A DNA stretch of 64,000 nucleotides from Escherichia coli. GTDB taxonomy: Bacteria; Pseudomonadota; Gammaproteobacteria; Enterobacterales; Enterobacteriaceae. Below are positions 19,943 to 44,064 of the stretch, piece after piece (position 1 is the stretch's first letter; the number at the start of each line of letters is the position of its first letter). Below the pieces are notes generated by a model. That model worked only from the letters and a program-made list of their open reading frames with translations. It was not told the origin of the DNA and made no database searches. Both the position numbers and the translations under genes were made by a program. Where the stretch lies: assembly GCF_050320075.1 (NCBI RefSeq), contig NZ_CP190018.1. One strand, written 5' to 3'.

Positions 19943-20020
19943 CAGATGTAATGGGAACGTTCTCTTCACTGACTTTTCGTCTTACTGTGTTGCCGCATTT
20001 TCAGCAACCGGAGGTCAGTA

Positions 20021-20572
20021 ATGAGCACAGAAAAAGAAAAGATGATTGCTGGTGAGTTGTATCGCTCGGCAGATGAGACGTTATCTCGCGATCGCCTGCG
20101 CGCTCGTCAGCTTATTCACCGATACAATCATTCCCTGGCGGAAGAGCACACATTACGCCAGCAAATTCTCGCTGATTTATTCGGTCAGGTGACAGAGGCT
20201 TATATTGAGCCAACGTTTCGCTGTGATTATGGCTATAACATTTTTCTCGGCAATAATTTTTTCGCCAACTTCGATTGCGTGATGCTTGATGTCTGCCCTA
20301 TTCGCATCGGTGATAACTGTATGTTGGCACCAGGCGTTCATATCTACACGGCAACACATCCCATCGACCCTGTAGCACGTAATAGCGGTGCTGAACTGGG
20401 GAAACCCGTCACCATCGGTAATAACGTCTGGATTGGCGGACGCGCGGTCATTAACCCTGGTGTGACCATTGGTGATAACGTCGTGGTAGCCTCAGGTGCA
20501 GTTGTCACAAAAGATGTCCCGGACAACGTTGTCGTGGGCGGTAATCCAGCCAGAATAATTAAAAAATTGTAA
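20021..20572 (+). CDS. maa: Maltose O-acetyltransferase (hexapeptide-repeat acyltransferase)
   Basis: 183-aa ORF with left-handed beta-helix hexapeptide repeats ([31 protein letters not shown]). Confidence 0.93.
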
Positions 20573-20687
20573 TAGGTTTTTCGCAACTGTTATGCAAAAT
20601 TGTGGTAAATCTGTTACTTTCCCTCTACTATTCCCACGTTAAAATAGGGTGTTCCCTGGAAAGTTGCAGATACCACGAAGGCAAACG

Positions 20688-21158
20688 ATGACCGAAATAC
20701 AACGCCTGCTGACCGAAACAATTGAGTCTCTAAATACCCGCGAAAAACGCGACAACAAACCCCGCTTTAGTATCAGTTTTATCCGTAAACATCCGGGGCT
20801 GTTTATCGGTATGTATGTTGCTTTTTTTGCCACCCTGGCGGTGATGTTGCAGTCCGAAACGCTTTCAGGCTCTGTCTGGCTACTGGTTGTATTATTTATC
20901 CTGCTTAATGGTTTCTTCTTTTTCGATGTCTACCCACGCTACCGCTATGAAGATATCGACGTGCTGGATTTCCGCGTTTGCTATAACGGCGAATGGTACA
21001 ACACGCGCTTTGTACCTGCCGCGCTGGTTGAAGCCATCTTGAACTCTCCGCGTGTCGCGGATGTTCATAAAGAACAACTGCAAAAAATGATCGTCCGTAA
21101 AGGTGAACTGTCTTTTTACGATATTTTTACCCTCGCTCGCGCCGAATCAACATCTTAA
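20688..21158 (+). CDS. ylaC: Inner membrane protein YlaC
   Basis: ORF track 169 aa; likely start [11 protein letters not shown] (156 aa); two predicted TM helices. Confidence 0.85.
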
Positions 21159-21315
21159 GTTAGGGTTACATACCAGGCGTAAAGCTCTGCGCCTGGTCAA
21201 ATGACAACGTTCGTTTCCACCCATCCCTTCATGAAATCCCGGCTCTACCTCCTTATCTCCTGCAAGCCTTTTTCCACAATCAGATATACTTTCCCTACAC
21301 TGTGTTAATAAGGAT

Positions 21316-22872
21316 ATGGTGGTGAGAACACGACATCTGGTCGGCCTTATTTCGGGAGTACTGATTCTTTCAGTATTGCTGCCTGTCGGCTTAAGCATCT
21401 GGCTGGCCCATCAGCAGGTAGAAACATCATTTATTGAAGAGCTGAATACGTATTCCTCCCGCGTCGCTATTCGGGCCAATAAGGTGGCGACACAAGGGAA
21501 AGATGCGCTGCAAGAGCTGGAAAGATGGCAAGGCGCTGCCTGTAGCGAAGCCCATCTCATGGAAATGCGTCGGGTATCTTACAGTTATCGCTATATTCAG
21601 GAAGTGGTTTATATCGATAACAACGTTCCCCAGTGTTCGTCTCTGGAGCATGAAAGCCCGCCCGATACCTTCCCCGAGCCAGGTAAAATTTCGAAAGATG
21701 GTTATCGTGTCTGGTTAACATCGCATAACGATTTAGGCATTATCCGTTACATGGTTGCCATGGGAACGGCACATTATGTCGTCATGATCGACCCCGCTTC
21801 CTTTATTGATGTCATTCCCTATAGCTCATGGCAAATTGATGCCGCCATTATTGGCAATGCCCATAACGTTGTGATAACCAGCAGCGATGAAATTGCTCAG
21901 GGAATTATTACCAGACTACAAAAAACACCCGGTGAGCATATCGAAAATAATGGAATCATTTACGATATCCTGCCCTTCCCGGAAATGAATATTTCGATCA
22001 TCACCTGGGCTTCAACGAAAATGTTGCAGAAAGGCTGGCATCGGCAAGTCTTTATTTGGTTACCGCTCGGGTTGGTGATTGGCCTGCTGGCAGCGATGTT
22101 TGTGCTGCGTATTTTGCGCCGTATCCAGTCACCGCATCATCGGCTGCAGGATGCTATCGAAAATCGTGATATTTGCGTGCACTATCAGCCGATTGTCTCC
22201 TTAGCCAATGGCAAAATTGTCGGTGCTGAGGCACTGGCGCGCTGGCCGCAGACAGACGGTAGTTGGTTGTCACCAGATAGTTTTATTCCGCTGGCACAGC
22301 AAACGGGCCTTTCTGAGCCATTGACGCTACTGATTATAAGAAGCGTCTTTGAAGATATGGGCGACTGGCTGCGTCAGCATCCGCAGCAGCATATTTCGAT
22401 CAATCTTGAATCCACCGTGCTCACCTCGGAAAAAATCCCGCAATTGCTGCGTGAAATGATCAATCACTATCAGGTTAATCCCAGACAGATCGCGCTTGAA
22501 CTCACTGAACGCGAGTTTGCCGATCCGAAAACCAGCGCCCCGATAATTTCTCGCTACCGGGAGGCGGGCCATGAAATTTATCTTGATGATTTTGGTACGG
22601 GGTATTCAAGTTTAAGTTATTTACAGGATCTGGATGTCGACATTCTGAAGATCGATAAATCTTTCGTTGATGCGCTGGAATATAAAAATGTCACGCCGCA
22701 TATCATCGAAATGGCAAAAACACTGAAACTGAAAATGGTAGCGGAGGGAATCGAAACCAGTAAACAAGAAGAGTGGTTACGCCAGCATGGCGTGCACTAC
22801 GGTCAGGGCTGGCTCTACAGCAAGGCATTACCGAAAGAAGATTTCTTACGCTGGGCCGAGCAACATTTGTGA
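21316..22872 (+). CDS. pdeB: c-di-GMP phosphodiesterase PdeB (YlaB), CSS-EAL domain protein
   Basis: 518-aa ORF with N-terminal TM/periplasmic sensor and EAL domain (GAEALARW); annotated start may be the GTG 2 codons downstream. Confidence 0.9.
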   Translation: MVVRTRHLVGLISGVLILSVLLPVGLSIWLAHQQVETSFIEELNTYSSRVAIRANKVATQGKDALQELERWQGAACSEAHLMEMRRVSYSYRYIQEVVYIDNNVPQCSSLEHESPPDTFPEPGKISKDGYRVWLTSHNDLGIIRYMVAMGTAHYVVMIDPASFIDVIPYSSWQIDAAIIGNAHNVVITSSDEIAQGIITRLQKTPGEHIENNGIIYDILPFPEMNISIITWASTKMLQKGWHRQVFIWLPLGLVIGLLAAMFVLRILRRIQSPHHRLQDAIENRDICVHYQPIVSLANGKIVGAEALARWPQTDGSWLSPDSFIPLAQQTGLSEPLTLLIIRSVFEDMGDWLRQHPQQHISINLESTVLTSEKIPQLLREMINHYQVNPRQIALELTEREFADPKTSAPIISRYREAGHEIYLDDFGTGYSSLSYLQDLDVDILKIDKSFVDALEYKNVTPHIIEMAKTLKLKMVAEGIETSKQEEWLRQHGVHYGQGWLYSKALPKEDFLRWAEQHL

Positions 22873-22913
22873 ATTGTAGGGCTGACGGCACGCCGCACAG
22901 CCCATCACGCTAC

Positions 22914-23267
22914 CTATTCGTCGATGATTGACTCGAATCCGCCATAGATCATTCGCTTACCATCAAACGGCATGGACTCGCCGAACTCTTTCATCCGTGG
23001 GTCCGACATCATCTTTTGATTAGCAGCGTCGCGGACCTCTTTTGAAGGGTATTCAATCCAGCTAAAGACAACCTCTTCATTCTCTTCAGCTTTTACCGCC
23101 ATACGAAAATCGGTCACTTTGCCATCCGGTACATCGCTGGCCCAGCATTCGACAATACGAAGCGCGCCAAACTCTTTAAACAATGGCGCAGCCTTAGCAG
23201 CCATTTCCCGATAGGCATCCTTTTTATCGACAGGAACGGCAACCACAAAACCATCAACATACTTCAT
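22914..23267 (-). CDS. ybaA: Uncharacterised protein YbaA (DUF1428)
   Basis: 117-aa ORF MKYVDGFVVAVPVDKKDAYREMAAKA..., convergent with pdeB. Confidence 0.9.
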   Translation of the reverse strand: MKYVDGFVVAVPVDKKDAYREMAAKAAPLFKEFGALRIVECWASDVPDGKVTDFRMAVKAEENEEVVFSWIEYPSKEVRDAANQKMMSDPRMKEFGESMPFDGKRMIYGGFESIIDE

Positions 23268-23377
23268 CAGACATACCTCCGAAGCGTACTGCGCAGCCAG
23301 ACAATTCTTGCGACGTCAGTTGTGGTTAAAGTTTAGCCATATTGGGATTTTTTGACGAAACGGGGGGAGGCAGAAAT

Positions 23378-23491
23378 GGGTGGGGGCCCTGCCAGCTACA
23401 TCCCGGCACACGCGTCATCTGCCTTGGCTGCTTCCTTCCGGACCTGACCTGGTAAACAGAGTAGCGTTGCGGGAGAACCAACAGAGCCCCC
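23378..23491 (-). ncRNA. ffs: 4.5S RNA (signal recognition particle RNA)
   Basis: Reverse complement of 23378..23491 reads GGGGGCTCTGTTGGTTCTCCCGCAACGC...GGCAGGGCCCCCACCC, the 114-nt 4.5S RNA. Confidence 0.97.
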
Positions 23492-23567
23492 ATTGAGAGC
23501 GTTGAGAACCAACGCGCAGGCGCATTATCACTGCTGCCCCGGCTAATTGCAACCCATTGCGTGCCGG

Positions 23568-23957
23568 ATGCTGGTTTCTTGCGCAATGCGGCTTCACTCG
23601 GGCGTTTTTCCAGATTATGCTGAAAAATTACCTCAGGAAGAAAAGATGGAAAAAGAAGATTCATTTCCCCAACGCGTCTGGCAAATCGTCGCCGCTATTC
23701 CCGAAGGCTATGTCACCACTTACGGTGATGTGGCGAAACTGGCAGGATCGCCCCGCGCCGCGCGCCAGGTGGGCGGTGTGTTAAAGCGTCTCCCCGAAGG
23801 CAGCACCTTACCCTGGCACCGGGTGGTTAATCGCCACGGCACAATTTCGCTAACCGGACCGGATTTACAGCGTCAACGACAGGCATTACTGGCAGAAGGT
23901 GTGATGGTATCGGGAAGCGGGCAAATCGACTTGCAGCGTTATCGCTGGAACTACTAA
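23568..23957 (+). CDS. atl: Alkyltransferase-like DNA damage-binding protein (Atl/YbaZ)
   Basis: ORF track 136 aa; likely 129-aa product from MLVSCAMRL; ends ...VMVSGSGQIDLQRYRWNY. Confidence 0.85.
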   Translation: MLVSCAMRLHSGVFPDYAEKLPQEEKMEKEDSFPQRVWQIVAAIPEGYVTTYGDVAKLAGSPRAARQVGGVLKRLPEGSTLPWHRVVNRHGTISLTGPDLQRQRQALLAEGVMVSGSGQIDLQRYRWNY

Positions 23958-23987
23958 CCCTCTCCGGGCGGAGAGGGTTAACTGCGC

Positions 23988-24560
23988 TTAATATTGCGTA
24001 GGAGCTGGAACTGCCGAAGACGGATTCACCTGAGTTGGTGAAGTCGAAGGTACGGTAGTCGTTGCGCCACCGCTGGCCTGAACCGGCACGGCGGTTTGCT
24101 GCACCGGCACCAATGTCAGGTCGGCTTTAGTTCCGCCCTGGTTGATCACCGGCTGAACGGTATCGGTAATAAATACCAGTTTGTCATTCACGGTAATCGC
24201 CGCACTCAACAGAATACGCGCATTCGGCTGAACATCTGCCGGGTTAAATGGCAGAACAAAGCTGAATGGTGACTGTTTGCCTTCGGTACGCACCGCTTTC
24301 TGCGCCAGTACTTTTGACGGTGCATCGGCTAACGACGCGTCAGAAAGTGTCACGGTCAGCACAGCATCAGGCGGCAGTGCGACTTTCTGACGGATCCAGA
24401 CGGTACCGGAGACATTCGGTTGCTGGATAGCAGGTTGTTGTGTTGCTGAAATAGACGTATTTGCAGCCGGTGCTGGCGTCTGAATATCCGCGCTTTTATC
24501 TGCGCAAGCCGCCAACGCAATCGCAACCGCTAAACCACTGGCCATGTGCACGAGTTTCAT
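23988..24560 (-). CDS. ybaY: Lipoprotein YbaY
   Basis: 190-aa ORF with lipobox (AIALAACADK). Confidence 0.9.
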   Translation of the reverse strand: MKLVHMASGLAVAIALAACADKSADIQTPAPAANTSISATQQPAIQQPNVSGTVWIRQKVALPPDAVLTVTLSDASLADAPSKVLAQKAVRTEGKQSPFSFVLPFNPADVQPNARILLSAAITVNDKLVFITDTVQPVINQGGTKADLTLVPVQQTAVPVQASGGATTTVPSTSPTQVNPSSAVPAPTQY

Positions 24561-24777
24561 TCACTTCTCCTTATTATCAATGCACCAGCGGGCTAACTTT
24601 CCTCGCCGGAAGAGTGGTTAACAAAATAGTAACGTCAACAAGTGTGGCACACATCACGCATTTCTGCCTGTAATTAGCCCGTAATTCAGACCATTGCACC
24701 CATCGGACCAGTGGCAAATTTGCGTTATACTCAACTCACTTTGGCTTGCTGCGGCAGCTTTGTTACTGGAGAGTTAT

Positions 24778-25638
24778 ATGAGTCAGGCGCTAAAAAATTT
24801 ACTGACATTGTTAAATCTGGAAAAAATTGAGGAAGGACTCTTTCGCGGCCAGAGTGAAGATTTAGGTTTACGCCAGGTGTTTGGCGGCCAGGTCGTGGGT
24901 CAGGCCTTGTATGCTGCAAAAGAGACCGTCCCTGAAGAGCGGCTGGTACATTCGTTTCATAGCTACTTTCTTCGCCCTGGCGATAGTAAGAAGCCGATTA
25001 TTTATGATGTCGAAACGCTGCGTGACGGTAACAGCTTCAGCGCCCGCCGGGTTGCTGCTATTCAAAACGGCAAACCGATTTTTTATATGACTGCCTCTTT
25101 CCAGGCACCAGAAGCGGGTTTCGAACATCAAAAAACAATGCCGTCCGCGCCAGCGCCTGATGGCCTGCCTTCGGAAACGCAAATCGCCCAATCGCTGGCG
25201 CACCTGCTGCCGCCAGTGCTGAAAGATAAATTCATCTGCGATCGTCCGCTTGAAGTCCGTCCGGTGGAGTTTCATAACCCACTGAAAGGGCACGTCGCAG
25301 AACCGCATCGTCAGGTGTGGATCCGCGCAAATGGTAGCGTGCCGGATGATCTGCGCGTTCATCAGTATCTGCTCGGTTACGCTTCTGATCTTAACTTCCT
25401 GCCGGTAGCTCTACAGCCGCACGGCATCGGTTTTCTCGAACCAGGAATTCAGATAGCGACCATCGACCATTCCATGTGGTTCCATCGCCCGTTTAATTTG
25501 AATGAATGGCTGCTGTATAGCGTGGAGAGCACCTCGGCGTCCAGCGCACGCGGCTTTGTGCGCGGTGAGTTTTATACCCAGGACGGCGTGCTGGTTGCCT
25601 CGACCGTTCAGGAAGGAGTAATGCGTAATCACAATTAA
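24778..25638 (+). CDS. tesB: Acyl-CoA thioesterase II
   Basis: ORF track 314 aa; true start [25 protein letters not shown] (286 aa). Confidence 0.95.
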
Positions 25639-25644
25639 AAAAAT

Positions 25645-25676
25645 AGCCGGAGGTGAAAACCGTCCGGCTGTTTTTT
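25645..25676. terminator. Bidirectional rho-independent terminator between convergent tesB and amtB
   Basis: AGCCGGA...TCCGGCT stem flanked by an A-run upstream and TTTTTT downstream. Confidence 0.65.
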
Positions 25677-25686
25677 GCAGTGCTTG

Positions 25687-26973
25687 TTACGCGTTATAGG
25701 CATTTTCGCCGTGGCTGTTGACGTCAAGCCCTTCTCGCTCCTGTTCTTCCGGCACACGCAGGCCAACCGTCAGATCCGCCAGTTTGTAGCCGATAAATGC
25801 CACCACACCGGACCAGACGATCGTAATGGCGATGCTTTCCAGCTGTACCAGCAACTGATGGCCCATCGTCACACCTTCAGCGAAGCCCACGCCGCCCAGC
25901 GAACTGGCGGCAAAAATCCCGGTCATGATACAGCCGACAATGCCACAAACGCCGTGCACACCGAAGACATCGCAGGGATCATCCACCCGCAGCAAGCGTT
26001 TGAGCATGGTAACGCCCCACAAGCCCGCCAGACCAGCTACCACGCCGATAATCAACGCGCCGCCAACACCAATGTAGCCACACGCTGGCGTCACGCCGAC
26101 CAGACCGGCAATCGCGCCAGAACACGCTCCCAGCAGTGAAGGCTTTCCGCGCAGCGCCCATTCACCGAAGATCCAGCCAAGAATTGCTGCCGCCGTTGCG
26201 ACCACAGTATTCACAAATGCCAGTGCCGCGATTTCATTCGCCGTGCCCGCTGACCCGGCGTTAAAGCCAAACCAACCGATATAGAGAATGGCAGTCCCGG
26301 TGAAGACCATCGGCAGGTTGTGCGGTTTAAACGCCTCTTTACCGAAGCCCACGCGTTTGCCTATCAGATATGCGCCCACCAGACCGGCGATTGCGGCGTT
26401 AATGTGCACCACCGTGCCACCCGCGAAATCCAGCGCACCGTGAGAAGCCAGCAAACCACCGCCCCAGACCATATGCGCAATCGGAATGTAGGAGAGCGTC
26501 AGCCATACCACCACGAAAATCAACACAGCTGAGAAGCGGATTCGTTCCGCCAGCGCCCCAACTATCAAGCCTACGGTAATGCAGGCAAACGATCCCTGAA
26601 ACGCTACGTGGATATACTGATAAATGCTGCCCATCACCGCCGTCAGTTCGATGTTTTTCAGCATCAACCAGTTAATGTTGCCGAAGAAGTTGTTTCCCTC
26701 ACCAAACGCCAGCGAGTAACCGTAAACCACCCAGAGAATACAGACCAGTGCAAACGTCACCGTCACCTGCGTCAGCATCGACAGCACGTTTTTGCCGCGA
26801 ATCAACCCACCGTAAAACAGGGCAATCCCCGGAATAGTCATAAACAGCACCAGCGCAGTACAAATCATCATAAACGCATTGTCGGCTTTATCGGCCACCG
26901 CAGGTGCAGCCATTACCAGTCCCGGCAGCATCGCCAGTGAAGCAAGCCCAGTTTTTATCGTCGCTATCTTCAT
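25687..26973 (-). CDS. amtB: Ammonium transporter AmtB
   Basis: 428-aa ORF with signal peptide and Amt/MEP architecture; immediately downstream of glnK. Confidence 0.97.
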   Translation of the reverse strand: MKIATIKTGLASLAMLPGLVMAAPAVADKADNAFMMICTALVLFMTIPGIALFYGGLIRGKNVLSMLTQVTVTFALVCILWVVYGYSLAFGEGNNFFGNINWLMLKNIELTAVMGSIYQYIHVAFQGSFACITVGLIVGALAERIRFSAVLIFVVVWLTLSYIPIAHMVWGGGLLASHGALDFAGGTVVHINAAIAGLVGAYLIGKRVGFGKEAFKPHNLPMVFTGTAILYIGWFGFNAGSAGTANEIAALAFVNTVVATAAAILGWIFGEWALRGKPSLLGACSGAIAGLVGVTPACGYIGVGGALIIGVVAGLAGLWGVTMLKRLLRVDDPCDVFGVHGVCGIVGCIMTGIFAASSLGGVGFAEGVTMGHQLLVQLESIAITIVWSGVVAFIGYKLADLTVGLRVPEEQEREGLDVNSHGENAYNA

Positions 26974-27002
26974 TTTTCGTTCCTGTTGCTGTGTGCCAGA
27001 GA

Positions 27003-27341
27003 TTACAGCGCCGATTCGTCGGCTTCGCCGGTACGAATACGAATGACGCGTTGCAATTCAGCGACGAAGATTTTGCCGTCGCCAATTTTTCCGGTGTAAG
27101 CCGCTTTGCTGACGATATCGATCACTTCATCGAGTTGGTCATCAGCAATCGCCACATCAATTTTTACTTTTGGCAGGAAATTGACGCTGTATTCCGCCCC
27201 CCGGTACAGCTCGGCATGTCCTTTCTGACGCCCGAAACCTTTCACTTCGGTGACGGTCAGGCCCTGAATACCAATGGAAGATAACGCTTCACGAACGTCT
27301 TCCAGCTTGAATGGTTTGATTATCACGGTCACCAGCTTCAT
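27003..27341 (-). CDS. glnK: Nitrogen regulatory protein PII-2 (GlnK)
   Basis: ORF track 158 aa; true start MKLVTVIIKPFKLEDVREAL (112 aa), uridylylation loop RGAEYSV. Confidence 0.97.
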   Translation of the reverse strand: MKLVTVIIKPFKLEDVREALSSIGIQGLTVTEVKGFGRQKGHAELYRGAEYSVNFLPKVKIDVAIADDQLDEVIDIVSKAAYTGKIGDGKIFVAELQRVIRIRTGEADESAL

Positions 27342-27393
27342 AGATCCCCTCCGGTCAGAATTCGGTAATGGTTCTGCTACACGAAGAAGGTAT

Positions 27394-27409
27394 TGCAAGC
27401 GGTGTGCCA
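27394..27409 (-). promoter_or_regulatory. Sigma-54 (-24/-12) promoter of glnK-amtB
   Basis: Minus strand reads TGGCAC-N5-TTGCA; inverted TGCACC...GGTGCA motifs further upstream fit NtrC enhancer sites. Confidence 0.7.
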
Positions 27410-27521
27410 GAAATGAAAAACGAGAAGGAGAGCAGGAAGTTAAGAAGATTGAAAACAAAAACGCACTATGACAGTGCACAGTGCGTTACATTTTTGCACC
27501 AACGATGAAATATTGCGCTAT

Positions 27522-31068
<3,547 letters not shown>

Positions 31069-31097
31069 GCGTTGTGTCCTGACCTGATTCTGGATAT

Positions 31098-31556
31098 TTA
31101 TTCGATGGGTAAAGAAGTGGTGTATTTAATCTGTTCCATCGCGAAGCTGGAAGTGACGTCCGACAGCCCCGGCACGCTGTTTACCAGGCGCTTATAAAAC
31201 TCGTCGTAGCGTTTCATGTCGGCAACCTGGACGCGCATCAGATAATCGTATTCACCAGCCATGCGCCAGAACCCCAGCACTTCTGGCATTTCGGTAACCA
31301 CCGTGACAAAGCGGCAATACCATTCGCTGCTGTGATGTTGCGTTTTTATCAGCACAAAGGCGGTCAGGCCGAGGCCTATTTTTTCCGGATCCAGCAGGGC
31401 GACTTTGCCGATAAGAATACCGTCGTCCTCCAGCCGTTTCAGACGCTTCCAGCAGGGGGTAGTTGTCAGATTAACGGCTTCAGCCAGTGCCTGCAAAGAG
31501 AGGGTGCAATCCTGCTGTAGTAAGGCCAGCAGCTTACGGTCAATTTTATCTAACAT
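31098..31556 (-). CDS. decR: Lrp/AsnC-family transcriptional regulator DecR (YbaO)
   Basis: ORF track 188 aa; true start [28 protein letters not shown] (152 aa). Confidence 0.9.
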
Positions 31557-31667
31557 AGCCCTTCCACGGAGAATTTTTTTCTCTTTTAATTCTATTTTAA
31601 AGGTGAAATCGCGACAATTTATTCTGTGCGGTTTAAACACCACGGCACAAAATGACAAATTCAACGC

Positions 31668-32378
31668 AAATAAATATCCTCCGGCATAGCCGGAGGTTTT
31701 TCAAATGCGCCTGTAAGGCTCTGTTACCAGCCGCGCCCTAACAGGCGCATACGATCTGACATTTGCATTCAACTTCGTTACTTACGGCCCGTAAACGGGC
31801 TGCCCGGATATGGAATCGATAACTGCTCCCCCATTTTATCCTCTTCAAGCTGGTGCTTTATGTAGTCCTGTATCTTCGCCGTGTTCTTACCCACCGTATC
31901 GACATAGTACCCTCGGCACCAGAACTCCCTGTTTCTGTATTTGAATTTCAAATCCCCAAACTGCTCGTAAAGCATCAGACTGCTTTTCCCTTTCAGATAT
32001 CCCATAAAGCCGGATACGCTCATTTTGGGTGGGATTTCCACAAGCATATGGATATGATCTGCGCGGCACTCTGCTTCCAGAATCCGTACGCTTTTCCACT
32101 CACACAGCTTTCTCAAAATACTGCCTATCGCCCTACGCTTCTCTCCGTAAAACGCCAGTCTTCGGTATTTCGGCGCAAAAACTATGTGATATTTACAGTT
32201 CCAGCGGGTGTGCGCTAAGCTCTTTTCGTCCCCCATTGGGACCCCCTTTTGATTTCTTGTTTGACACTTGCAGTTGCCAGACCGCAAGGTGTTTTAACAA
32301 ATCAAAAGGGGTTTGAATAACTGGCTCAAAGCTGAAAGCTTTCCGGAACCCCCAGCCTAGCTGGGGGTTTTCTGTGCA
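31668..32378 (-). mobile_element. IS200 insertion sequence (IS200/IS605 family), boundaries approximate to about 10 bp
   Basis: About 710 bp extra in the decR-cof spacer; encodes an IS200-type TnpA; subterminal hairpins CCCCCAGC-CTA-GCTGGGGG (32349..32367) and CCTCCGGC-ATA-GCCGGAGG (31678..31696); no terminal inverted repeats, as expected for this family. Confidence 0.85.
31778..32236 (-). CDS. tnpA: IS200 transposase TnpA (HUH/Y1 single-strand transposase)
   Basis: 152-aa product MGDEKSLAHTRWNCKYHIVFAPKYRR...HIHMLVEIPPK...YVDTVG; HUH motif HIH and catalytic Tyr region present. Confidence 0.92.
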   Translation of the reverse strand: MGDEKSLAHTRWNCKYHIVFAPKYRRLAFYGEKRRAIGSILRKLCEWKSVRILEAECRADHIHMLVEIPPKMSVSGFMGYLKGKSSLMLYEQFGDLKFKYRNREFWCRGYYVDTVGKNTAKIQDYIKHQLEEDKMGEQLSIPYPGSPFTGRK

Positions 32379-32381
32379 CAA

Positions 32382-32404
32382 AAAAACCGGGCAATTGCCC
32401 GGTG
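32382..32404 (-). terminator. Rho-independent terminator downstream of cof
   Basis: CCGGGCAATTGCCCGG hairpin followed by a T-run on the minus strand. Confidence 0.7.
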
Positions 32405-32419
32405 CTGGAAGGGATCTCG

Positions 32420-33238
32420 TTATTCGGGGGAATAAGGTAGATGTGGATAGTCCAGCCAGTGCGTCAAATAGTGAGAGACAGCCTGATTTCGGCAATGTCC
32501 AATCACCGGTAAATGCGGGAGCTCCGCGCGCAATTGCGGCATCGCATTGCCCATAATAAATCCGCTACCGACGCAGCCTAACATTTCGCGATCGTTCATC
32601 GCATCACCAAAGGCCATGCAATCGCGCAACGATAAACCTAAATGTTGGGTCAGCACCGTCAATGCAGCGCCTTTATTGCAGCCCACCGGCAGCACTTCGA
32701 GGCAATCCGTAGCGGAAAAACACAAATGTGCACGCTCGCCTAATGCTTCGTATAGCTGGATCTGCAAGCGTGTAAGATCGTCGTGATCGCCACAGAAGCA
32801 GATCTTGGTGACGCTGCCGAGTGGCATTTTTTTGACATCGATTATCTGATAACGAAAACCGCTATAGACAAATGCCTGCAACAACGCAGGGATCTCTTTC
32901 CCGGTAAACCAACCGTCGTCATTGAAGATATGCATGCTGGCTCGGGTATCCCATTGCTGATACAGCACCAGCTCCGCGACATCCGCAGGTAAATCATCAC
33001 GATGTAAAAGTTCACCTTCCAGAGAATGCACGCGCGTTCCGTTGCCGGTAATCAAATATGCATCCAGCGATAGCGCCCCGAGAATATGCTGCATCTCCAG
33101 CGCATGACGCCCCGTGGCAAAAGTGAGGGTAATGTCGCGTTCACGCAGTCGCGCCAAAGTAGAGAGGGTTTTCTCACCTAAATGATGGTCAGGCATCAAT
33201 AAAGTGCCATCCATATCAAATGCTGCCAGACGAGCCAT
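32420..33238 (-). CDS. cof: HMP-PP phosphatase Cof (HAD superfamily)
   Basis: ORF track 276 aa; HAD motif I in [10 protein letters not shown]; 272-aa product from MARLAAF. Confidence 0.92.
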
Positions 33239-33337
33239 TTCTTTCTCCACTCTGTGACACGGTTAATGGTGATTGAGTATCACCTGATATATACGGAAGT
33301 AATAGTGAATAGTTAAATAATATTGTTCCGGGTTTAT

Positions 33338-35038
33338 ATGCGACTGCTCAACCGTCTTAACCAGTATCAACGTCTGTGGCAACCTTCCGCCGGAAAGCCG
33401 CAAACCGTCACCGTCAGCGAACTGGCCGAACGCTGTTTTTGCAGCGAACGCCATGTTCGTACGCTGTTACGCCAGGCACAGGAGGCGGGATGGCTGGAGT
33501 GGCAGGCGCAGTCAGGACGCGGAAAGCGCGGGCAACTACGCTTTCTGGTCACGCCAGAATCGCTACGCAATGCGATGATGGAACAGGCGCTGGAAACCGG
33601 AAAGCAGCAAGATGTGCTGGAGCTGGCGCAACTGGCCCCAGGTGAGCTGCGCACTCTGTTACAGCCGTTTATGGGCGGACAATGGCAAAACGATACGCCC
33701 ACGTTGCGTATTCCCTACTATCGCCCGCTCGAACCGCTACAACCGGGCTTTTTGCCCGGCCGTGCCGAGCAGCATCTCGCCGGACAGATATTTTCCGGCC
33801 TGACCCGCTTCGATAATAATACCCAGCGCCCGATTGGCGATTTAGCGCATCACTGGGAAACCTCTGCTGACGGGTTACGCTGGGACTTTTATCTTCGTTC
33901 AACCCTACACTGGCATAACGGCGATGCAGTAAAAGCCTCACACTTACACCAGCGATTATTGATGCTGTTACAACTGCCAGCACTGGATCAATTATTTATT
34001 AGCGTGAAGCGTATTGAAGTCACCCATCCGCAGTGTCTGACCTTCTTTTTACATCGCCCCGATTACTGGCTTGCGCACCGGCTGGCGAGCTATTGCAGCC
34101 ATCTGGCGCATCCGCAATTCCCCCTGATCGGCACTGGTCCTTTTCGCTTAACACAATTCACAGTGGAACTGGTGCGCCTGGAGAGTCATGATTATTACCA
34201 TTTACGTCATCCGCTGCTTAAAGCGGTTGAGTACTGGATAACTCCGCCGCTTTTCGAAAAAGATTTGGGAACCAGTTGTCGGCATCCCGTGCAAATCACT
34301 ATCGGCAAACCGGAGGAGTTGCAACGGGTCAGCCAGGTCAGTAGTGGCATCAGTTTAGGTTTTTGCTATTTAACGTTGCGCAAAAGTCCCCGACTGTCCC
34401 TCTGGCAGGCGCGAAAAGTGATCTCCATTATTCATCAATCCGGTTTATTACAAACGTTAGAAGTCGGAGAAAACCTGATCACCGCCAGTCATGCATTACT
34501 GCCAGGCTGGACTATTCCGCAATGGCAAGTACCGGATGAGGTCAAACTACCGAAAACCTTGACACTGGTTTATCACCTACCGATAGAACTTCATACCATG
34601 GCAGAACGTCTACAGGCGACACTGGCAGCGGAAGGCTGTGAACTCACAATTATTTTTCATAACGCAAAAAACTGGGACGACACGACCCTACTGGCACACG
34701 CAGACCTCATGATGGGCGACAGATTAATTGGCGAAGCACCGGAATATACCCTGGAGCAATGGCTGCGTTGCGATCCACTATGGCCACATGTTTTCGACGC
34801 TCCAGCATATGCACATTTGCAATCGACACTGGACGCGGTGCAAGTAATGCCTGATGAGGAAAACCGATTTAATGCCCTAAAAGCGGTTTTTAGCCAGTTA
34901 ATGGCAGACGCGACGCTGACGCCGCTATTCAACTATCACTATCGCATTAGTGCCCCTCCCGGCGTGAACGGTGTGCGACTGACACCGCGCGGCTGGTTTG
35001 AATTTACCGAAGCCTGGCTTCCCGCGCCGTCGCAATGA
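33338..35038 (+). CDS. ybaE: SgrR-like / solute-binding family 5 protein YbaE
   Basis: ORF track 571 aa; likely start MRLLNRLNQYQRLWQ (566 aa). Confidence 0.88.
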   Translation: MRLLNRLNQYQRLWQPSAGKPQTVTVSELAERCFCSERHVRTLLRQAQEAGWLEWQAQSGRGKRGQLRFLVTPESLRNAMMEQALETGKQQDVLELAQLAPGELRTLLQPFMGGQWQNDTPTLRIPYYRPLEPLQPGFLPGRAEQHLAGQIFSGLTRFDNNTQRPIGDLAHHWETSADGLRWDFYLRSTLHWHNGDAVKASHLHQRLLMLLQLPALDQLFISVKRIEVTHPQCLTFFLHRPDYWLAHRLASYCSHLAHPQFPLIGTGPFRLTQFTVELVRLESHDYYHLRHPLLKAVEYWITPPLFEKDLGTSCRHPVQITIGKPEELQRVSQVSSGISLGFCYLTLRKSPRLSLWQARKVISIIHQSGLLQTLEVGENLITASHALLPGWTIPQWQVPDEVKLPKTLTLVYHLPIELHTMAERLQATLAAEGCELTIIFHNAKNWDDTTLLAHADLMMGDRLIGEAPEYTLEQWLRCDPLWPHVFDAPAYAHLQSTLDAVQVMPDEENRFNALKAVFSQLMADATLTPLFNYHYRISAPPGVNGVRLTPRGWFEFTEAWLPAPSQ

Positions 35039-35102
35039 ATAGCTGGTCCGGGTTAATCGCAGGCGTTACCATAACGCTTTTATTGTTCAAGCAGGATTAT
35101 CT

Positions 35103-35798
35103 ATGAAACGTGCTGTCGTTGTGTTCAGTGGAGGCCAGGATTCCACCACCTGTCTGGTGCAGGCATTACAACAATATGATGAAGTCCATTGCGTGACGTT
35201 CGATTACGGTCAGCGGCATCGCGCAGAAATCGACGTGGCACGCGAACTGGCGCTGAAACTGGGGGCACGCGCGCATAAGGTGCTGGATGTCACCCTGCTC
35301 AACGAGCTGGCGGTCAGTAGCCTGACGCGTGACAGCATTCCGGTGCCTGATTATGAACCTGAAGCTGATGGCATCCCGAATACGTTTGTCCCTGGGCGTA
35401 ATATTTTGTTCCTGACGCTGGCGGCAATATATGCGTATCAGGTAAAAGCAGAAGCGGTGATTACCGGCGTCTGTGAAACGGATTTCTCCGGCTACCCGGA
35501 TTGCCGCGATGAGTTTGTGAAAGCACTAAACCATGCCGTCAGTTTGGGCATGGCGAAAGATATTCGTTTTGAAACGCCGCTGATGTGGATTGATAAAGCG
35601 GAAACCTGGGCGCTGGCAGATTATTACGGCAAACTGGATTTAGTCCGTAACGAAACGTTGACCTGCTATAACGGCATTAAAGGCGACGGTTGCGGTCATT
35701 GTGCGGCATGTAATTTACGCGCCAACGGTTTGAATCATTATCTGGCCGATAAACCGACGGTGATGGCAGCGATGAAGCAGAAAACCGGGTTGAGGTAA
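35103..35798 (+). CDS. queC: 7-cyano-7-deazaguanine synthase QueC
   Basis: 231-aa ORF with PP-loop SGGQDS and C-terminal Cys cluster (CGHCAAC). Confidence 0.95.
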
Positions 35799-35849
35799 TT
35801 ATTCCGGGTGTCGCCGGATGCGGCTTGAGCATCCGGCACCACAAAACGT

Positions 35850-36248
35850 TTACTTAACCATCTGCTCGAGCTTTTCGCGCAATTCCCCTTCCAGAGCTAA
35901 CGCTTTCTGCGTTTTAAGATCAATACAAACAAACGTAATAAGCGCATCCGCTACCACCTGCCCTTCCGGCTCCAGTGTAATGACCTGGCTTAAGATGCCG
36001 CTTTTACCGTTTAATTGCTGCAACTGACTGGTAATGGTTAACAGGTCGCTTAATACCGCCGGGCGACGATAGTTAATATTGATATTGACCACGACGAAGG
36101 CGATGTTATGGGCCGTCATCCACTGAAAACTGTCGCTATTTTCCAACCCATCCCAGCGGGCTTCTTCGAGAAACTCCAGATAGCGAGCGTTGTTTACGTG
36201 CTGGTAAACGTCGAGATGATATCCACGAACTTTGATTTGTGTTTGCAT
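35850..36248 (-). CDS. fadM: Long-chain acyl-CoA thioesterase III FadM (YbaW)
   Basis: 132-aa hotdog-fold ORF MQTQIKVRGYHLDVYQHVNNARYLEFLEEAR. Confidence 0.93.
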   Translation of the reverse strand: MQTQIKVRGYHLDVYQHVNNARYLEFLEEARWDGLENSDSFQWMTAHNIAFVVVNININYRRPAVLSDLLTITSQLQQLNGKSGILSQVITLEPEGQVVADALITFVCIDLKTQKALALEGELREKLEQMVK

Positions 36249-36301
36249 AGCGCAATAACCTTACGTTGTTTTTATAAAAACTGTTATAAGTACAGAGGCC
36301 A

Positions 36302-38747
<2,446 letters not shown>

Positions 38748-38938
38748 GGTGTAACAACACTCCGCTGTAGATGACTGTGTACCTCACGCAACGTATCGAT
38801 GCGCGCAAAGGCCTATTGTGACAAGAAACGGGGGCAATTGTCAGCCCACAAGACGCAGAAAGTCACCGAATACAAATAAAAAAGGCACATCAGTAGATGC
38901 GCCCTTGAACTTCGTCACATCCCCACTGGGGACAACGC

Positions 38939-39211
38939 TTAGTTTACCGCGTCTTTCAGTGCTTTACCTGCACGGAAGCTCGGTACTTTAGCGGCAGCGA
39001 TGGTGATCTCTTTACCGGTCTGCGGGTTGCGGCCAGTACGGGCAGCACGCTCTTTAACGGCAAAAGTACCAAAACCTACCAGTGCTACATCATCCCCTTC
39101 TTTCAGAGATTCAGTTACGGAAGCAATAATAGCATCTAACGCACGGCCAGCCGCAGCTTTAGAGATATCAGCCCCTGCAGCAATCTTGTCGATCAATTGA
39201 GATTTATTCAC
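38939..39211 (-). CDS. hupB: DNA-binding protein HU-beta
   Basis: 90-aa [53 protein letters not shown]... Confidence 0.97.
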
Positions 39212-39350
39212 TCTTCTCTTCCTCTTTATAATTTATATCGCACTTGAATCCTTCAAGGTACGAACGCGCAGCAGTTATATCAGGCCAGCCATCCCCTTAC
39301 AACACCCCTTAATAAGGGCAAGCCCGATCCGCCATCTAACTTAGCGAGAC

Positions 39351-39398
39351 AAAAAAAGGCTGGCAAGCCCGAATTAGCCTGCCAGCCCTGTTTTTATT
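39351..39398. terminator. Bidirectional rho-independent terminator downstream of lon
   Basis: GGCTGGCA...TGCCAGCC stem flanked by AAAAAAA and TTTTTATT. Confidence 0.7.
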
Positions 39399-39419
39399 AG
39401 TGCATTTTGCGCGAGGTCA

Positions 39420-41774
39420 CTATTTTGCAGTCACAACCTGCATGCCAGACGGTTCATTTTGCAGCGCCAGAGTCAGAACTTCCTCAATGCGTTTCACAGG
39501 ATGAATGTCCAGATCGGCAATTACGTTGTCAGGAATCTCTTCCAGATCGCGTTTATTTTCGAACGGAATTAACACTGTTTTAATCCCGCCGCGATGCGCT
39601 GCCAGTAGTTTTTCTTTCAAACCACCGATAGGCAGTACCTGACCACGCAGAGTGATCTCACCGGTCATTGCCACATCGGCACGAACCGGGTTACCGGTCA
39701 GGCAAGAAACCAGCGCGGTGCACATAGCAATACCGGCACTCGGACCATCTTTCGGCGTCGCACCTTCCGGTACGTGGACGTGGATGTCGCGTTTTTCGTA
39801 AAAATCAGGGTTGATCCCCAGTTTTTCCGCACGCGCACGAACCACCGTTAACGCCGCCTGAATGGACTCCTGCATCACTTCACCGAGCGAACCGGTATAG
39901 GTCAGTTTGCCTTTCCCCGGAACACATGCGGTTTCAATGGTCAGCAAGTCACCGCCCACTTCCGTCCACGCCAGACCGGTTACCTGACCGACACGGTTTT
40001 CGTTATCAGCGCGTCCATAGTCGAAACGCTGAACACCGAGGTAGTCATGCAGGTTATCACCGTTAATTTCGATATGTTTTAATGACTTATCGAGCAGTAA
40101 CTGCTTAACCGCTTTGCGACACAGTTTGGAGATTTCACGCTCCAGACCACGCACGCCCGCCTCACGGGTGTAATAACGAATAATGCCGATAATGGCGCTA
40201 TCGTCGACGGTCAGCTCACCTTTTTTCAGTGCATTACGTTCAATCTGCTTCGGCAGCAGGTGACGTTTGGCGATGTTCAGTTTTTCATCTTCGGTATAAC
40301 CGGAGAGGCGAATCACTTCCATACGATCCAGCAGCGGTGCCGGAATGTTCATGGAGTTCGACGTCGCGACAAACATCACGTCGCTGAGATCGTAATCCAC
40401 TTCCAGGTAGTGGTCGCTGAACGCTACGTTCTGCTCTGGATCCAGCACTTCAAGCAGTGCGGAGGCCGGATCGCCACGCATGTCAGAAGACATTTTGTCG
40501 ATCTCATCAAGCAGGAACAGCGGGTTTTTCACGCCCACTTTCGCCATTTTCTGGATCAGTTTACCCGGCATAGAACCGATGTAAGTACGGCGGTGACCAC
40601 GGATTTCCGCTTCATCACGCACGCCGCCCAGCGCCATACGGACATATTTACGCCCGGTTGCTTTGGCGATGGACTGACCCAGGGAGGTTTTACCTACCCC
40701 CGGCGGCCCTACCAGGCAGAGGATCGGTCCCTTGATTTTGTTGACACGGCTTTGAACCGCAAGATACTCAAGGATGCGATCTTTCACGCGCTCCAGACCA
40801 TAATGGTCGGTATCAAGGATTTCCTGCGCCTGACGCAGGTCTTTTTTGACCTTGCTACGCGCATTCCACGGCACCTGTACCATCCAGTCGATATAACCAC
40901 GCACTACGGTCGCTTCTGCCGACATCGGAGACATCATTTTCAGCTTCTGCAACTCTGCTTCCGCTTTCTCTTTTGCCTCTTTCGGCATTTTCGCCGCGTC
41001 GATTTTGCGCTTCAGGGCTTCGTTTTCGTCCGGCGCGTCGTCCATTTCACCGAGTTCTTTCTGAATAGCTTTCATTTGCTCGTTCAGATAGTACTCACGC
41101 TGGGATTTCTCCATCTGCTTTTTAACGCGGTTGCGAATGCGTTTCTCAACCTGCAGCAGATCGATTTCCGATTCCATCATTGCCATCAGATATTCCAGAC
41201 GTTCGTTAACGTCGGACATCTCCAGAACGGACTGTTTGTCAGCCAGTTTCAGCGGCATATGTGCAGCAATGGTATCCGCCAGACGCGCCGGGTCGTCGAT
41301 GCTATTCAGCGACGTCAGCACTTCTGGTGGGATTTTTTTGTTCAGCTTGATGTAGCCTTCGAACTGGCTGATTGCAGTACGCACCAGCACTTCCTGTTCC
41401 CGCTCATCAATGGTCGGCGACTCCAGATACTCCGCCTTCGCAGAAAAGTGTTCGCCATTGTCAGAGAGCGCAGAAATACGCGCGCGCTGTAACCCCTCGA
41501 CCAGCACTTTGACGGTGCCGTCAGGCAGTTTCAGCATCTGCAATATAGAGGCCACGGTCCCGACGGTGAAAAGATCGTTTACACCCGGCTCATCCGTTGA
41601 AGCTTCTTTCTGCGCGACCAGCATAATTTTTTTATCATGGTCCATCGCCGCTTCCAGACAACGGATAGATTTTTCCCGCCCGACAAATAAGGGGATGACC
41701 ATGTGCGGATAAACCACCACATCGCGCAGCGGCAATACGGGGATTTCAATGCGTTCAGAACGCTCAGGATTCAT
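39420..41774 (-). CDS. lon: ATP-dependent Lon protease
   Basis: ORF track 799 aa; true start [18 protein letters not shown] (784 aa); Walker [10 protein letters not shown] and catalytic Ser in DGPSAG. Confidence 0.97.
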
Positions 41775-41857
41775 AGAGCTCTCTCTTAGTTTAATTTCCG
41801 CCAGGTAATCAGATGACACGACTGTGCTTCACGCCATCTATTAACATGTACGTCAGT

Positions 41858-41884
41858 ATATGGGGATGTTTCCCCCACATTCAA
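41858..41884 (-). promoter_or_regulatory. Candidate sigma-32 heat-shock promoter of lon
   Basis: Minus strand TTGAATG, spacer, CCCCATAT upstream of lon. Confidence 0.55.
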
Positions 41885-41908
41885 CGCCGAGAATAGAGGA
41901 AAAATTAA

Positions 41909-41933
41909 AGGGGAGATAAAATCCCCCCTTTTT
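41909..41933 (-). terminator. Hairpin/T-run after clpX
   Basis: GGGGAG...CCCCCC hairpin with T-runs on both strands, directly after clpX stop. Confidence 0.55.
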
Positions 41934-41961
41934 GGTTAACTAATTGTATGGGAATGGTTAA

Positions 41962-43236
41962 TTATTCACCAGATGCCTGTTGCGCTTCCGGCTTGCCATA
42001 AATCAGCAACGGCTTGCTTTGACCATCAATTACCGATTCGTCGATAACCACTTTTTCGACGTCTTCCATGGACGGCAGATCGTACATGGTATCGAGCAGT
42101 GCGGCTTCTACGATGGAACGCAGGCCACGGGCACCGGTTTTACGCGCCATCGCTTTCTTAGCGATAGCATCCAGCGCCTCGTCACGGAATTCCAGATCCA
42201 CGCCTTCCAGATTAAACAGCGCCTGATACTGCTTGGTCAGGGCGTTTTTCGGCTCTTTGAGGATCTGAATCAGAGCTTCTTCGCTCAGTTCATTCAACGT
42301 TGCGACAACCGGCAGACGACCAATAAACTCAGGGATAAGACCAAACTTGATCAGATCTTCCGGTTCAACCTGCGCCAGCAGCTCGCCTTCGCTTGCTTTG
42401 TCGGACTTCGCTTTTACCGTCGCGCCAAAACCAATGCCGGAGCCGGTTTCTACACGATGGGAAATCACTTTATCCAGACCGGCAAACGCACCGCCACAAA
42501 TAAACAGGATCTTAGAGGTATCAACCTGCAAGAATTCCTGCTGCGGATGTTTACGCCCACCTTGCGGCGGAACAGCAGCTACCGTACCTTCGATCAGTTT
42601 CAACAGTGCCTGCTGTACGCCTTCACCGGAAACGTCTCGGGTAATGGACGGGTTGTCTGACTTACGAGAAATCTTGTCGATTTCATCGATGTAGACAATC
42701 CCGCGCTGCGCTTTCTGTACGTCGTAATCGCACTTCTGCAACAGCTTCTGAATGATGTTTTCAACGTCTTCGCCCACATAACCGGCTTCGGTCAGCGTGG
42801 TTGCGTCGGCCATGGTGAACGGGACGTCCAGCAGGCGCGCCAGCGTTTCGGCCAGCAGCGTTTTACCGGAACCGGTCGGACCGATCAGCAGAATGTTACT
42901 TTTGCCCAACTCGACACCATTGCTGGTATCGCCGTTGCGCAGACGTTTGTAGTGGTTGTATACCGCGACCGCCAGCACTTTTTTCGCCTGTTCCTGGCCG
43001 ATAACGTAATCGTCCAGGTGGTTACGAATTTCATGCGGCGTCGGTAGCGCACTGCGTTCACGATGCGGTGCAACTTCTTTAATCTCTTCGCGAATGATGT
43101 CGTTACATAAATCAACACATTCGTCGCAGATATACACGGATGGACCGGCAATCAGCTTGCGCACTTCATGCTGGCTTTTGCCGCAAAAAGAGCAATACAG
43201 CAATTTGCCTGAGCCATCTTTGCGTTTATCTGTCAT
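41962..43236 (-). CDS. clpX: ATP-dependent Clp protease ATP-binding subunit ClpX
   Basis: 424-aa ORF with N-terminal zinc finger (CSFCGKS...CDEC) and Walker A GPTGSGKT. Confidence 0.97.
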
Positions 43237-43361
43237 GGGTCAAAACCTCTTCTTTGTTCTTTGTGCCGCACACGACGACGCAAATGCCATTCTCAGGCGC
43301 AAGCCGCTTACAGCGTTGTGCCGCCCTGGATAAGTATAGCGGCACAGTTGCGCCTCTGGCA

Positions 43362-43985
43362 TCAATTACGATGGGTCAGAATCGAATCGACCAGACCGTA
43401 TTCCACCGCTTCAGGGGCGGAAAGGAAGCGATCGCGCTCGGTATCACGTTCAATCTGTTCTAATGATTGACCCGTATGAAGCGCCATAAGTTCATTCATG
43501 CGTCCTTTAACTTTCAGAATTTCACGGGCATGAATTTCGATATCGGTCGCCTGGCCCTGGTAGCCGCCCAACGGCTGGTGAATCATCACGCGCGAATTCG
43601 GCAGGCAGAAACGTTTACCTTTTGCCCCTGCAGTCAGCAAGAAAGCGCCCATCGAAGCCGCCTGGCCCATACAGATGGTGCTGACATCAGGCTTGATAAA
43701 CTGCATGGTGTCATAGATAGACATCCCGGCAGTAATCACCCCGCCTGGGGAGTTGATGTACAGATAGATATCTTTTTCTGGGTTTTCTGCTTCCAGGAAC
43801 AGCATCTGCGCCACAATCAGGTTAGCCATGTGGTCTTCAACCTGGCCAGTCAGAAAAATGACGCGTTCCTTAAGTAGACGAGAATAGATATCAAAAGAGC
43901 GCTCACCACGTGAGGTCTGTTCAATGACCATCGGCACCAGCGCCATATGGGGTGCAAAGTTATCTCGTTCGCCGCTGTATGACAT
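43362..43985 (-). CDS. clpP: ATP-dependent Clp protease proteolytic subunit ClpP
   Basis: 207-aa ORF with active-site Ser in GQAASMGAF. Confidence 0.97.
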
Positions 43986-44064
43986 TTCCGTCTCCTGGAT
44001 AAAATTGAAAAAACCTGCTGTACCGATTGTAACCTTATGGACGGATTATCAGCTAGTCCCTGTG

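Follow-up and report, generated by a model that had tools for sequence, protein, structure and literature searches.

We found that the spacer between decR (ybaO) and cof in an Escherichia coli chromosome contains a complete IS200, a member of the IS200 group (tnpA only) of the IS200/IS605 family. The copy lies within a 64,000-nucleotide stretch of DNA, here called the window. We are highly confident of the overall explanation, namely, that this is an intact, autonomous IS200C-type copy that would have arrived by the route typical of its family, would be silenced in the way described for Salmonella, and is most likely neutral. The element is of an already known kind, and the locus is an already published instance. 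The present analysis covers the identity of the element, its completeness, boundaries, and structures, the empty site, and the distribution in the population. For transposition chemistry, regulation, and neutrality, we drew on the literature on Salmonella IS200 and on IS608 and ISDra2. The element, its gene, and its neighbors are as follows.

31669..32379, minus strand (sense strand): complete IS200 (IS200C-type variant), 711 bp, with the left end at 32379 and the right end at 31669
31778..32236, minus strand: tnpA, encoding a 152-aa Y1 HUH transposase (open reading frame; H61-I-H63, catalytic Y125)
32241..32248, minus strand: tnpA Shine-Dalgarno sequence AAGGGGGU (read from the sequence; identical to that quoted in PMC4513863)
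32420..33238, minus strand: cof, the upstream neighbor, co-oriented with tnpA (RefSeq annotation of identical loci)
31098..31556, minus strand: decR (ybaO), the downstream neighbor (RefSeq annotation of identical loci)

From the cof stop codon (32420) to the decR ATG (31556), the spacer is 863 bp here versus 152 bp in K-12. When we aligned it to the K-12 MG1655 spacer, we found a net gain of exactly 711 bp in a single clean insertion. This agrees with the first-pass annotation, made from the sequence alone, which had estimated that the decR-cof spacer was about 710 bp longer than a simple intergenic region. That annotation gave the interval as 31668..32378. The length was correct, but the position was off by one base, since the element occupies 31669..32379 when judged by 11 independent copies and two empty sites. 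The 11 independent E. coli sites share GTGCACAG... at the left through ...GGATATTTATT at the right, and the next right-hand base varies (T, A or G). Because the flank and the IS end are both T-rich, an ambiguity of 1 to 2 nt cannot be removed from sequence alone, and the right boundary is ambiguous by 1 to 2 T's. The 28Eco12 paper draws the same copy as 709 bp, ending 2 nt earlier (PMC6963479). In an inverted-repeat scan, we found no pairing between the two termini and thus no terminal inverted repeats.

We aligned the element to copies that RefSeq labels IS200C and found that the alignment is gap-free across 711 columns. Together with identical copies elsewhere, this gap-free full-length alignment indicates that the element is neither truncated nor chimeric. 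The alignment and the profile scores given below uphold the earlier claim that the element is complete and does not belong to another IS family. tnpA is its only gene. The other open reading frames overlap tnpA in other frames, and none extends past the 711 bp; in the open reading frame map, the longest of them encodes 121 aa and is antisense to tnpA.

The transposase had been described as a 152-aa TnpA with an HUH motif that matches IS200, and both its residues (H61-I-H63 and Y125) and its profile matches bear this out. TnpA matched Pfam Y1_Tnp (E=9e-37) and the NCBIfam equivalog transpos_IS200 (143.9 bits versus a cutoff of 55). Its relatives with solved structures (PDB 2ec2, 2f5g, 2a6m, and 2xm3) are Sulfolobus IS200-type proteins and the TnpA proteins of IS608 and ISDra2. 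Y125 corresponds to the residue that, when changed in Salmonella IS200 TnpA (Y125F), leaves the protein catalytically dead; the Salmonella protein is active in E. coli (PMC4513863).

The protein variant encoded here is WP_001550737, which RefSeq names only "IS200/IS605 family transposase." The element resembles IS200C (E. coli; ISfinder/RefSeq naming) in its 711-bp length, gap-free collinearity, identical ends and hairpins, and similar insertion sites, and TnpA is 97% identical. It differs from the IS200C copies that encode WP_000526135, the commonest IS200C protein, by ~5% at the nucleotide level and by 5 amino acid substitutions (D3/N, L27/Q, A28/V, G31/R, and R58/C). The five variant positions of WP_001550737 (3, 27, 28, 31, and 58) are all in the N-terminal half.

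We also considered whether the transposase could come from another Y1 system, either a RAYT/REPtron or an IS605/IS608-type element with tnpB. TnpA does have the Y1 fold in common with IS608 and ISDra2 TnpA, and it gave a weak match to NCBIfam REP_Tyr_transpos (E=1e-6). However, the latter match (NF047646) reached 28.6 bits, far under the cutoff of 80, while the transpos_IS200 score is well above its own. There is no tnpB-sized open reading frame inside or beside the 711 bp in the open reading frame map, and the element is mobile and present in multiple copies, unlike a lone domesticated gene between REP arrays. The profile scores and the open reading frame map refute the RAYT/REPtron and IS605-type readings, and we regard an origin in another Y1 system as having practically no chance of being right. 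We concluded that tnpA encodes an IS200 transposase.

Both ends of the element contain structures that are expected of IS200, and the right end contains a second repeat.

32347..32369, unstranded: left-end subterminal hairpin AACCCCCAGC-TAG-GCTGGGGGTT, 10 bp, the presumed TnpA recognition hairpin, with a putative terminator role by analogy (PMC4513863, PMC5435999)
31678..31696, unstranded: right-end subterminal hairpin CCTCCGGC-ATA-GCCGGAGG (given also as CCTCCGGC-TAT-GCCGGAGG), z -3.6
31705..31750, minus strand: a further right-end inverted repeat, ATGCGCCTGT...ACAGGCGCAT, located past the tnpA stop codon and before the right-end hairpin (scan repeat I4)

The 8-bp core of the left-end hairpin, CCCCCAGC-CTA-GCTGGGGG at 32349..32367, occurs once in the window, with 0 occurrences expected by chance. 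Folded as DNA, the left-end hairpin has an energy of -11.7 kcal/mol (z -4.0 versus shuffled sequences). The left and right hairpins are of one design, two compensatory pair changes apart, and GAAAA precedes each of them. The hairpins with 8-bp stems and 3-nt loops that had been noted at the two ends are therefore both present as described (32349..32367 and 31678..31696). In the tnpA sense, the right-end hairpin is followed by ATATTTATT, and the hairpin is terminator-like in both directions. The 92 nt of the right end folded with a z of -6.4. The repeat at 31705..31750 was absent from the first-pass annotation; we found that it is kept in other copies with a G-U change.

Two further candidates in this region were rejected. 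A match to Rfam Ysr202 (Yersinia sRNA 202) at 31633..31701 fell far below the gathering threshold (27.5 bits versus 315) and is limited to the right-end hairpin, probably because an IS1541 right end forms the end of that Yersinia family. We attributed to chance an inverted repeat (I5, 80%) that pairs the decR-side flank with sequence beyond the tnpA stop codon, because the flanks at other IS sites are unrelated.

The sense strand, folded as RNA over its first 180 nt, gave three structures, a hairpin at nucleotides 11 to 33, a stem-loop at nucleotides 69 to 137, and a 5-bp hairpin at the AUG. The first is the left-end hairpin listed above. The others, and the RNAs matched or expected in this region, are as follows.

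32243..32311, minus strand: 5' untranslated region (UTR) stem-loop with lower stem CCCCUUUUGAUUU / AAAUCAAAAGGGG, predicted to bury the Shine-Dalgarno sequence (minimum free energy and centroid folds, z -4.3)
32228..32242, minus strand: small hairpin GUCCC-AAUGG-GGGAC, 5 bp, with a 5-nt loop that includes the AUG (z -2.5)
32246..32369, minus strand: match to Rfam RF01405 STnc490 (IS200 5' region RNA), full model 1-124 (143.9 bits versus a gathering threshold of 56, E=8e-31)
32227..32316, plus strand: expected position of the art200 antisense small RNA (sRNA), ~90 nt, placed by homology only (PMC4513863; near-identity to the STnc490 consensus)

The 5' UTR stem is inverted repeat I3 of our scan and is 94% complementary. 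Previous work on Salmonella IS200 (Lam and Roth; Beuzon/Casadesus, Ellis/Haniford) provides a counterpart for each of the larger structures, which we compared by published positions. A stem-loop at nucleotides 69 to 138 (69 to 137 here) sequesters the Shine-Dalgarno sequence (PMC4513863). A bidirectional terminator at nucleotides 12 to 34 (11 to 33 here) shields tnpA from impinging transcription, and 30S binding is blocked by the art200 antisense RNA (90 nt, formerly STnc490, with its 5' end at nucleotide 153/154) and, independently, by Hfq (PMC4513863, PMC5435999). Like the Salmonella element, the copy in the window has a single tnpA, has its parts in equal order, and matches STnc490 end to end, and the Shine-Dalgarno sequence AAGGGGGU and catalytic Y125 are found in both. 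Unlike the copy in the window, which is 711 bp, the Salmonella element is 707 bp. Regulation by art200 and Hfq and a trans-acting 5'tnpA sRNA (with invF as a target) are Salmonella features, which may extend to E. coli chromosomal copies by analogy.

By the same analogy with the Salmonella element, silencing of tnpA would occur in three ways. The left-end hairpin would terminate incoming transcription, the long 5' UTR stem would bury the Shine-Dalgarno sequence, and the antisense sRNA art200, together with Hfq, would repress tnpA further.

The first-pass annotation had instead assigned the known translational sequestration to a third hairpin, GTCCC-AAT-GGGGAC around 32228..32245, that encloses the tnpA start codon. 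A hairpin does exist at this place, but its form and extent are different (GUCCC-AAUGG-GGGAC, 32228..32242). The proposed role did not hold up, as the documented block is the 5' UTR stem that buries the Shine-Dalgarno sequence, which that annotation did not list. In the common IS200C copies, the AUG hairpin has a G-to-A change and folds no better than shuffled sequences (z -0.28). The AUG hairpin is variant specific and probably minor.

We observed that the STnc490 model matches the tnpA-sense strand, including the left-end terminator hairpin, whereas in the literature STnc490/art200 is antisense to the tnpA 5' UTR. The orientation or extent of the model may not match art200. An Rfam match to snoU36a (E=1) was dismissed as chance.

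Comparison with K-12 placed the insertion in the terminator of cof.

32380..32403, minus strand: insertion target, the cof intrinsic terminator, ACCGGGCAATTGCCCGGT plus T7; the IS starts right after the seventh T
31668, minus strand: eighth T of the T-run in the uninterrupted cof terminator, separated from the other seven by the IS (K-12 alignment)

K-12 reads CCCGG-T8-GCGTTGA, and the window reads CCCGG-T7-[711 bp]-T-GCGTTGA. Because the eighth T lies across the IS, there is no target duplication. At a second empty site, lysS-idi (K-12 versus CFT073), TTATT is host sequence and nothing is duplicated. We found TTNTT immediately 5' of the left end at all 11 of the E. coli sites. The element is co-oriented with cof, and all three genes are on the minus strand.

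From its family, we infer that the element arrived by "peel and paste" transposition of a single strand. Joining of the sense strand would have taken place in the cof terminator T-tract, 3' of TTTTT (the general form is TTNTT), without duplication. By analogy with IS608, TnpA would bind the end hairpins on the sense strand (PMC3597680, PMC5934647). The choice of T-rich cleavage sites (TTNTT ahead of the left end, TTATT where the element ends) would be guided in part by the A-rich sequence 5' of each hairpin. IS608 and ISDra2 biochemistry suggests that the intermediate would be a single-stranded circle and that TnpA would catalyze the reaction. The plus strand of the window has a negative GC skew, and there is a weak indication that the IS sense strand is on the lagging-strand template side, which would fit the expectation for the family.

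The likeness to IS608 (H. pylori) and ISDra2 (D. radiodurans) extends to several features. Their Y1 HUH TnpA proteins are homologous to that of the window (E 1e-19 to 1e-16), they have subterminal hairpins and no terminal inverted repeats, and they insert 3' of a short sequence without duplication. They also have a short guide-like sequence 5' of the hairpin foot, which is GAAAA here; guide-target pairing in IS200 would follow by analogy. In contrast to the element in the window, they carry tnpB and recognize TTAC / TTGAT rather than a TTNTT flank.

The placement after cof is typical of the group. All 11 E. coli sites have a GC-rich hairpin and then a T-run that ends in TTNTT right up against the left end of the IS, and in every case the IS is co-oriented with the gene upstream. 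We scanned species-representative genomes for the exact 19-nt left-end hairpin and obtained at least 120 stretches. These include 25 distinct Yersinia pestis IS1541 sites, as well as sites in Vibrio, Edwardsiella, Brenneria, Dickeya, and Pluralibacter. Hairpins upstream of the insertion site were counted as follows.

111 distinct IS200-group sites: hairpin (at most 1 mismatch) ending 2 to 11 nt before the site at 95/111 (86%); perfect stems at 62/111 (56%)
Control, intergenic TTNTT sites in the window with the IS removed: hairpin (at most 1 mismatch) at 15%; perfect stems at 4.5%

IS1541 (Y. pestis / Y. pseudotuberculosis) is similar to the element in the window in its identical 19-nt left-end hairpin and identical right terminus, ...CCTCCGGCTATGCCGGAGGATATTTATT, and it sits right after a hairpin plus T-run at 24 of 25 sites. 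It differs in its left terminus (GTGCCCAG versus GTGCACAG here), its much higher copy number, and its tandem copies. In Y. pestis, some IS1541 copies are directly after the right end of another copy, and these tandem junctions indicate that the right end of one copy is used as a target by another. Such tandems are found in Y. pestis NCTC5923, where the left end GTGCCCAG is directly on the other copy's right end, ...CCTCCGGCTATGCCGGAGGATATTTATT.

Terminators of this kind, in which a GC hairpin follows an A-tract and a T-tail runs to TTNTT ~5 to 9 nt past the stem, resemble the right end of the element (GAAAAA, the hairpin, and ATATTTATT). IS200-group elements might thus actively select intrinsic terminators as structured targets rather than just a pentanucleotide. 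We propose this tentatively and hold it to be possible but on balance doubtful; the enrichment may fit either active targeting or the survival of harmless insertions under purifying selection. The terminator-proximal enrichment itself is already known statistically. A preprint reported an enrichment of terminator-like sequences immediately upstream of ISs, which was strongest for IS200/IS605 (10.1101/2025.07.22.666184). In the literature on IS1541 insertions and IS608 targets, we found nothing specific to IS200 on target choice; only the 28Eco12 paper and the preprint bear on it.

We also encountered the 19-nt left-end hairpin, CCCCCAGCTAGGCTGGGGG, preceded by the conserved GTnnnnnGAAAA, in metagenome-assembled genomes (MAGs), which was unexpected. 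These were assigned to Bacillota, Peptococcaceae, Ruminococcus, Mailhella/Desulfovibrio (Desulfovibrionaceae), Elusimicrobia, Saccharibacteria, and Oxalobacter. The hairpins in MAGs are often ~100 nt from contig ends, which is the signature of a multicopy repeat, and at some Firmicutes loci the resemblance to the E. coli element is limited to the initial ~140 nt. Horizontal spread, extreme conservation of the left end, or MAG contamination could account for these occurrences.

The first-pass annotation had put the right end roughly 110 bp upstream of the decR start codon, and we measured the distance as 112 nt. It had also suggested that the insertion may alter the decR promoter context. The 112-nt segment upstream of decR is retained, with three single-nucleotide differences from K-12, and contains one candidate promoter.

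31589..31617, minus strand: promoter-like TTGTCG-17-TAGAAT upstream of decR (candidate, consensus scan only)

In the consensus scan, this site (31617..31589) was the only promoter-like site facing decR in the 112-nt segment. Upstream of the segment, K-12 has the cof terminator; in the window, its place is taken by the IS right-end hairpin and ATATTTATT, again a terminator-like arrangement.

The insertion could be consequential and alter decR expression, through displaced upstream sequence, read-through, or termination, even if the element is an ordinary IS200. The IS is just 112 bp from the decR ATG, the sequence beyond -112 has been replaced, and the insertion has gone to fixation in a successful clinical lineage. 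However, the promoter-like -35/-10 site is untouched, 51 bp inside the retained segment, and transcriptional insulation is similar, with the IS right-end hairpin and T-rich tail standing in for the cof terminator. IS200 is not known for outward promoters. Moreover, IS200-group elements are in such positions almost everywhere, which points to a generic reason and not one specific to decR. Since the promoter-like site is kept and one terminator is swapped for another, we judged a change in decR expression to be unlikely. A changed promoter context is possible but not favored, and by analogy the insertion is most likely neutral.

The decR upstream segment also contains an imperfect 22-nt palindrome, CAATTTATTCTGTGCGGTTTAA / TTAAACACCACGGCACAAAATG, at 31615..31654, which overlaps the promoter-like -35 and is present in K-12 as well. 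From its sequence, it could be an operator.

We examined how widely the insertion is distributed. Of 5426 complete E. coli genomes, 138 had the decR-side junction and 5236 had the uninterrupted site. MG1655 has the empty site and a K-12-like genome matches the flank only, as expected from the earlier statement that IS200 is absent from K-12. Strains that include 28Eco12 match the window at 100% identity over 24 kb around the element. 28Eco12 is typed as ST38, and the copy is listed there as IS200C at 3939865..3940573 in a T-rich region (PMC6963479). The insertion thus marks a lineage other than K-12, as had been proposed, and this lineage is an ST38-like clade.

Other features of the window and its relatives were noted. 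The window contains three landmarks that are usual for this part of the E. coli chromosome, the dnaX frameshift element, the 4.5S/SRP RNA (ffs), and sraA, at 6689..6753, 23387..23483, and 41846..41941; no tRNA genes were found in the 64 kb. CFSAN061763 and CFSAN061768 (NZ_CP042899.1 / NZ_CP042973.1) match positions 20000..44000 of the window in two pieces and are ~776 bp longer than the query, and they appear to carry an extra small insertion in this interval that the window lacks.

IS200-like DNA that matches the element was found in 2644 of the 5426 complete genomes; per genome, the median number of places was 2 and the maximum was 35. The exact TnpA protein was found on 499 contigs. Copies of the element that are at least 99% identical are confined to 222 records, and most E. 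coli genomes carry variants that are 90 to 99% identical.

We asked whether the copy might be a dead relic, structurally complete but immobile, and a mere marker of ancestry. IS200 is notoriously inactive and mostly dormant (PMC4513863; PMC12594629), and the same insertion is fixed in 138 genomes. In contrast, the open reading frame is intact with its catalytic residues, and both ends and the regulatory structures are intact. Related strains have full-length 711-bp copies that are 100% identical at no fewer than three further loci (among them yfeX/yfeY, ycaL/aroA, and mglA/mglB) and carry 8 to 15 copies per genome. Identical copies at several loci suggest recent transposition of the same variant. 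We consider it very improbable that the copy is a relic and favor an intact, autonomous element.

Landing in the T-tract of a host terminator doubly insulates IS200-group elements from host transcription, which helps explain their long and quiet persistence. This copy is a lineage marker for the ST38-like clade and may cause breaks in assemblies or recombine with other IS copies; otherwise, it matters little beyond annotation.
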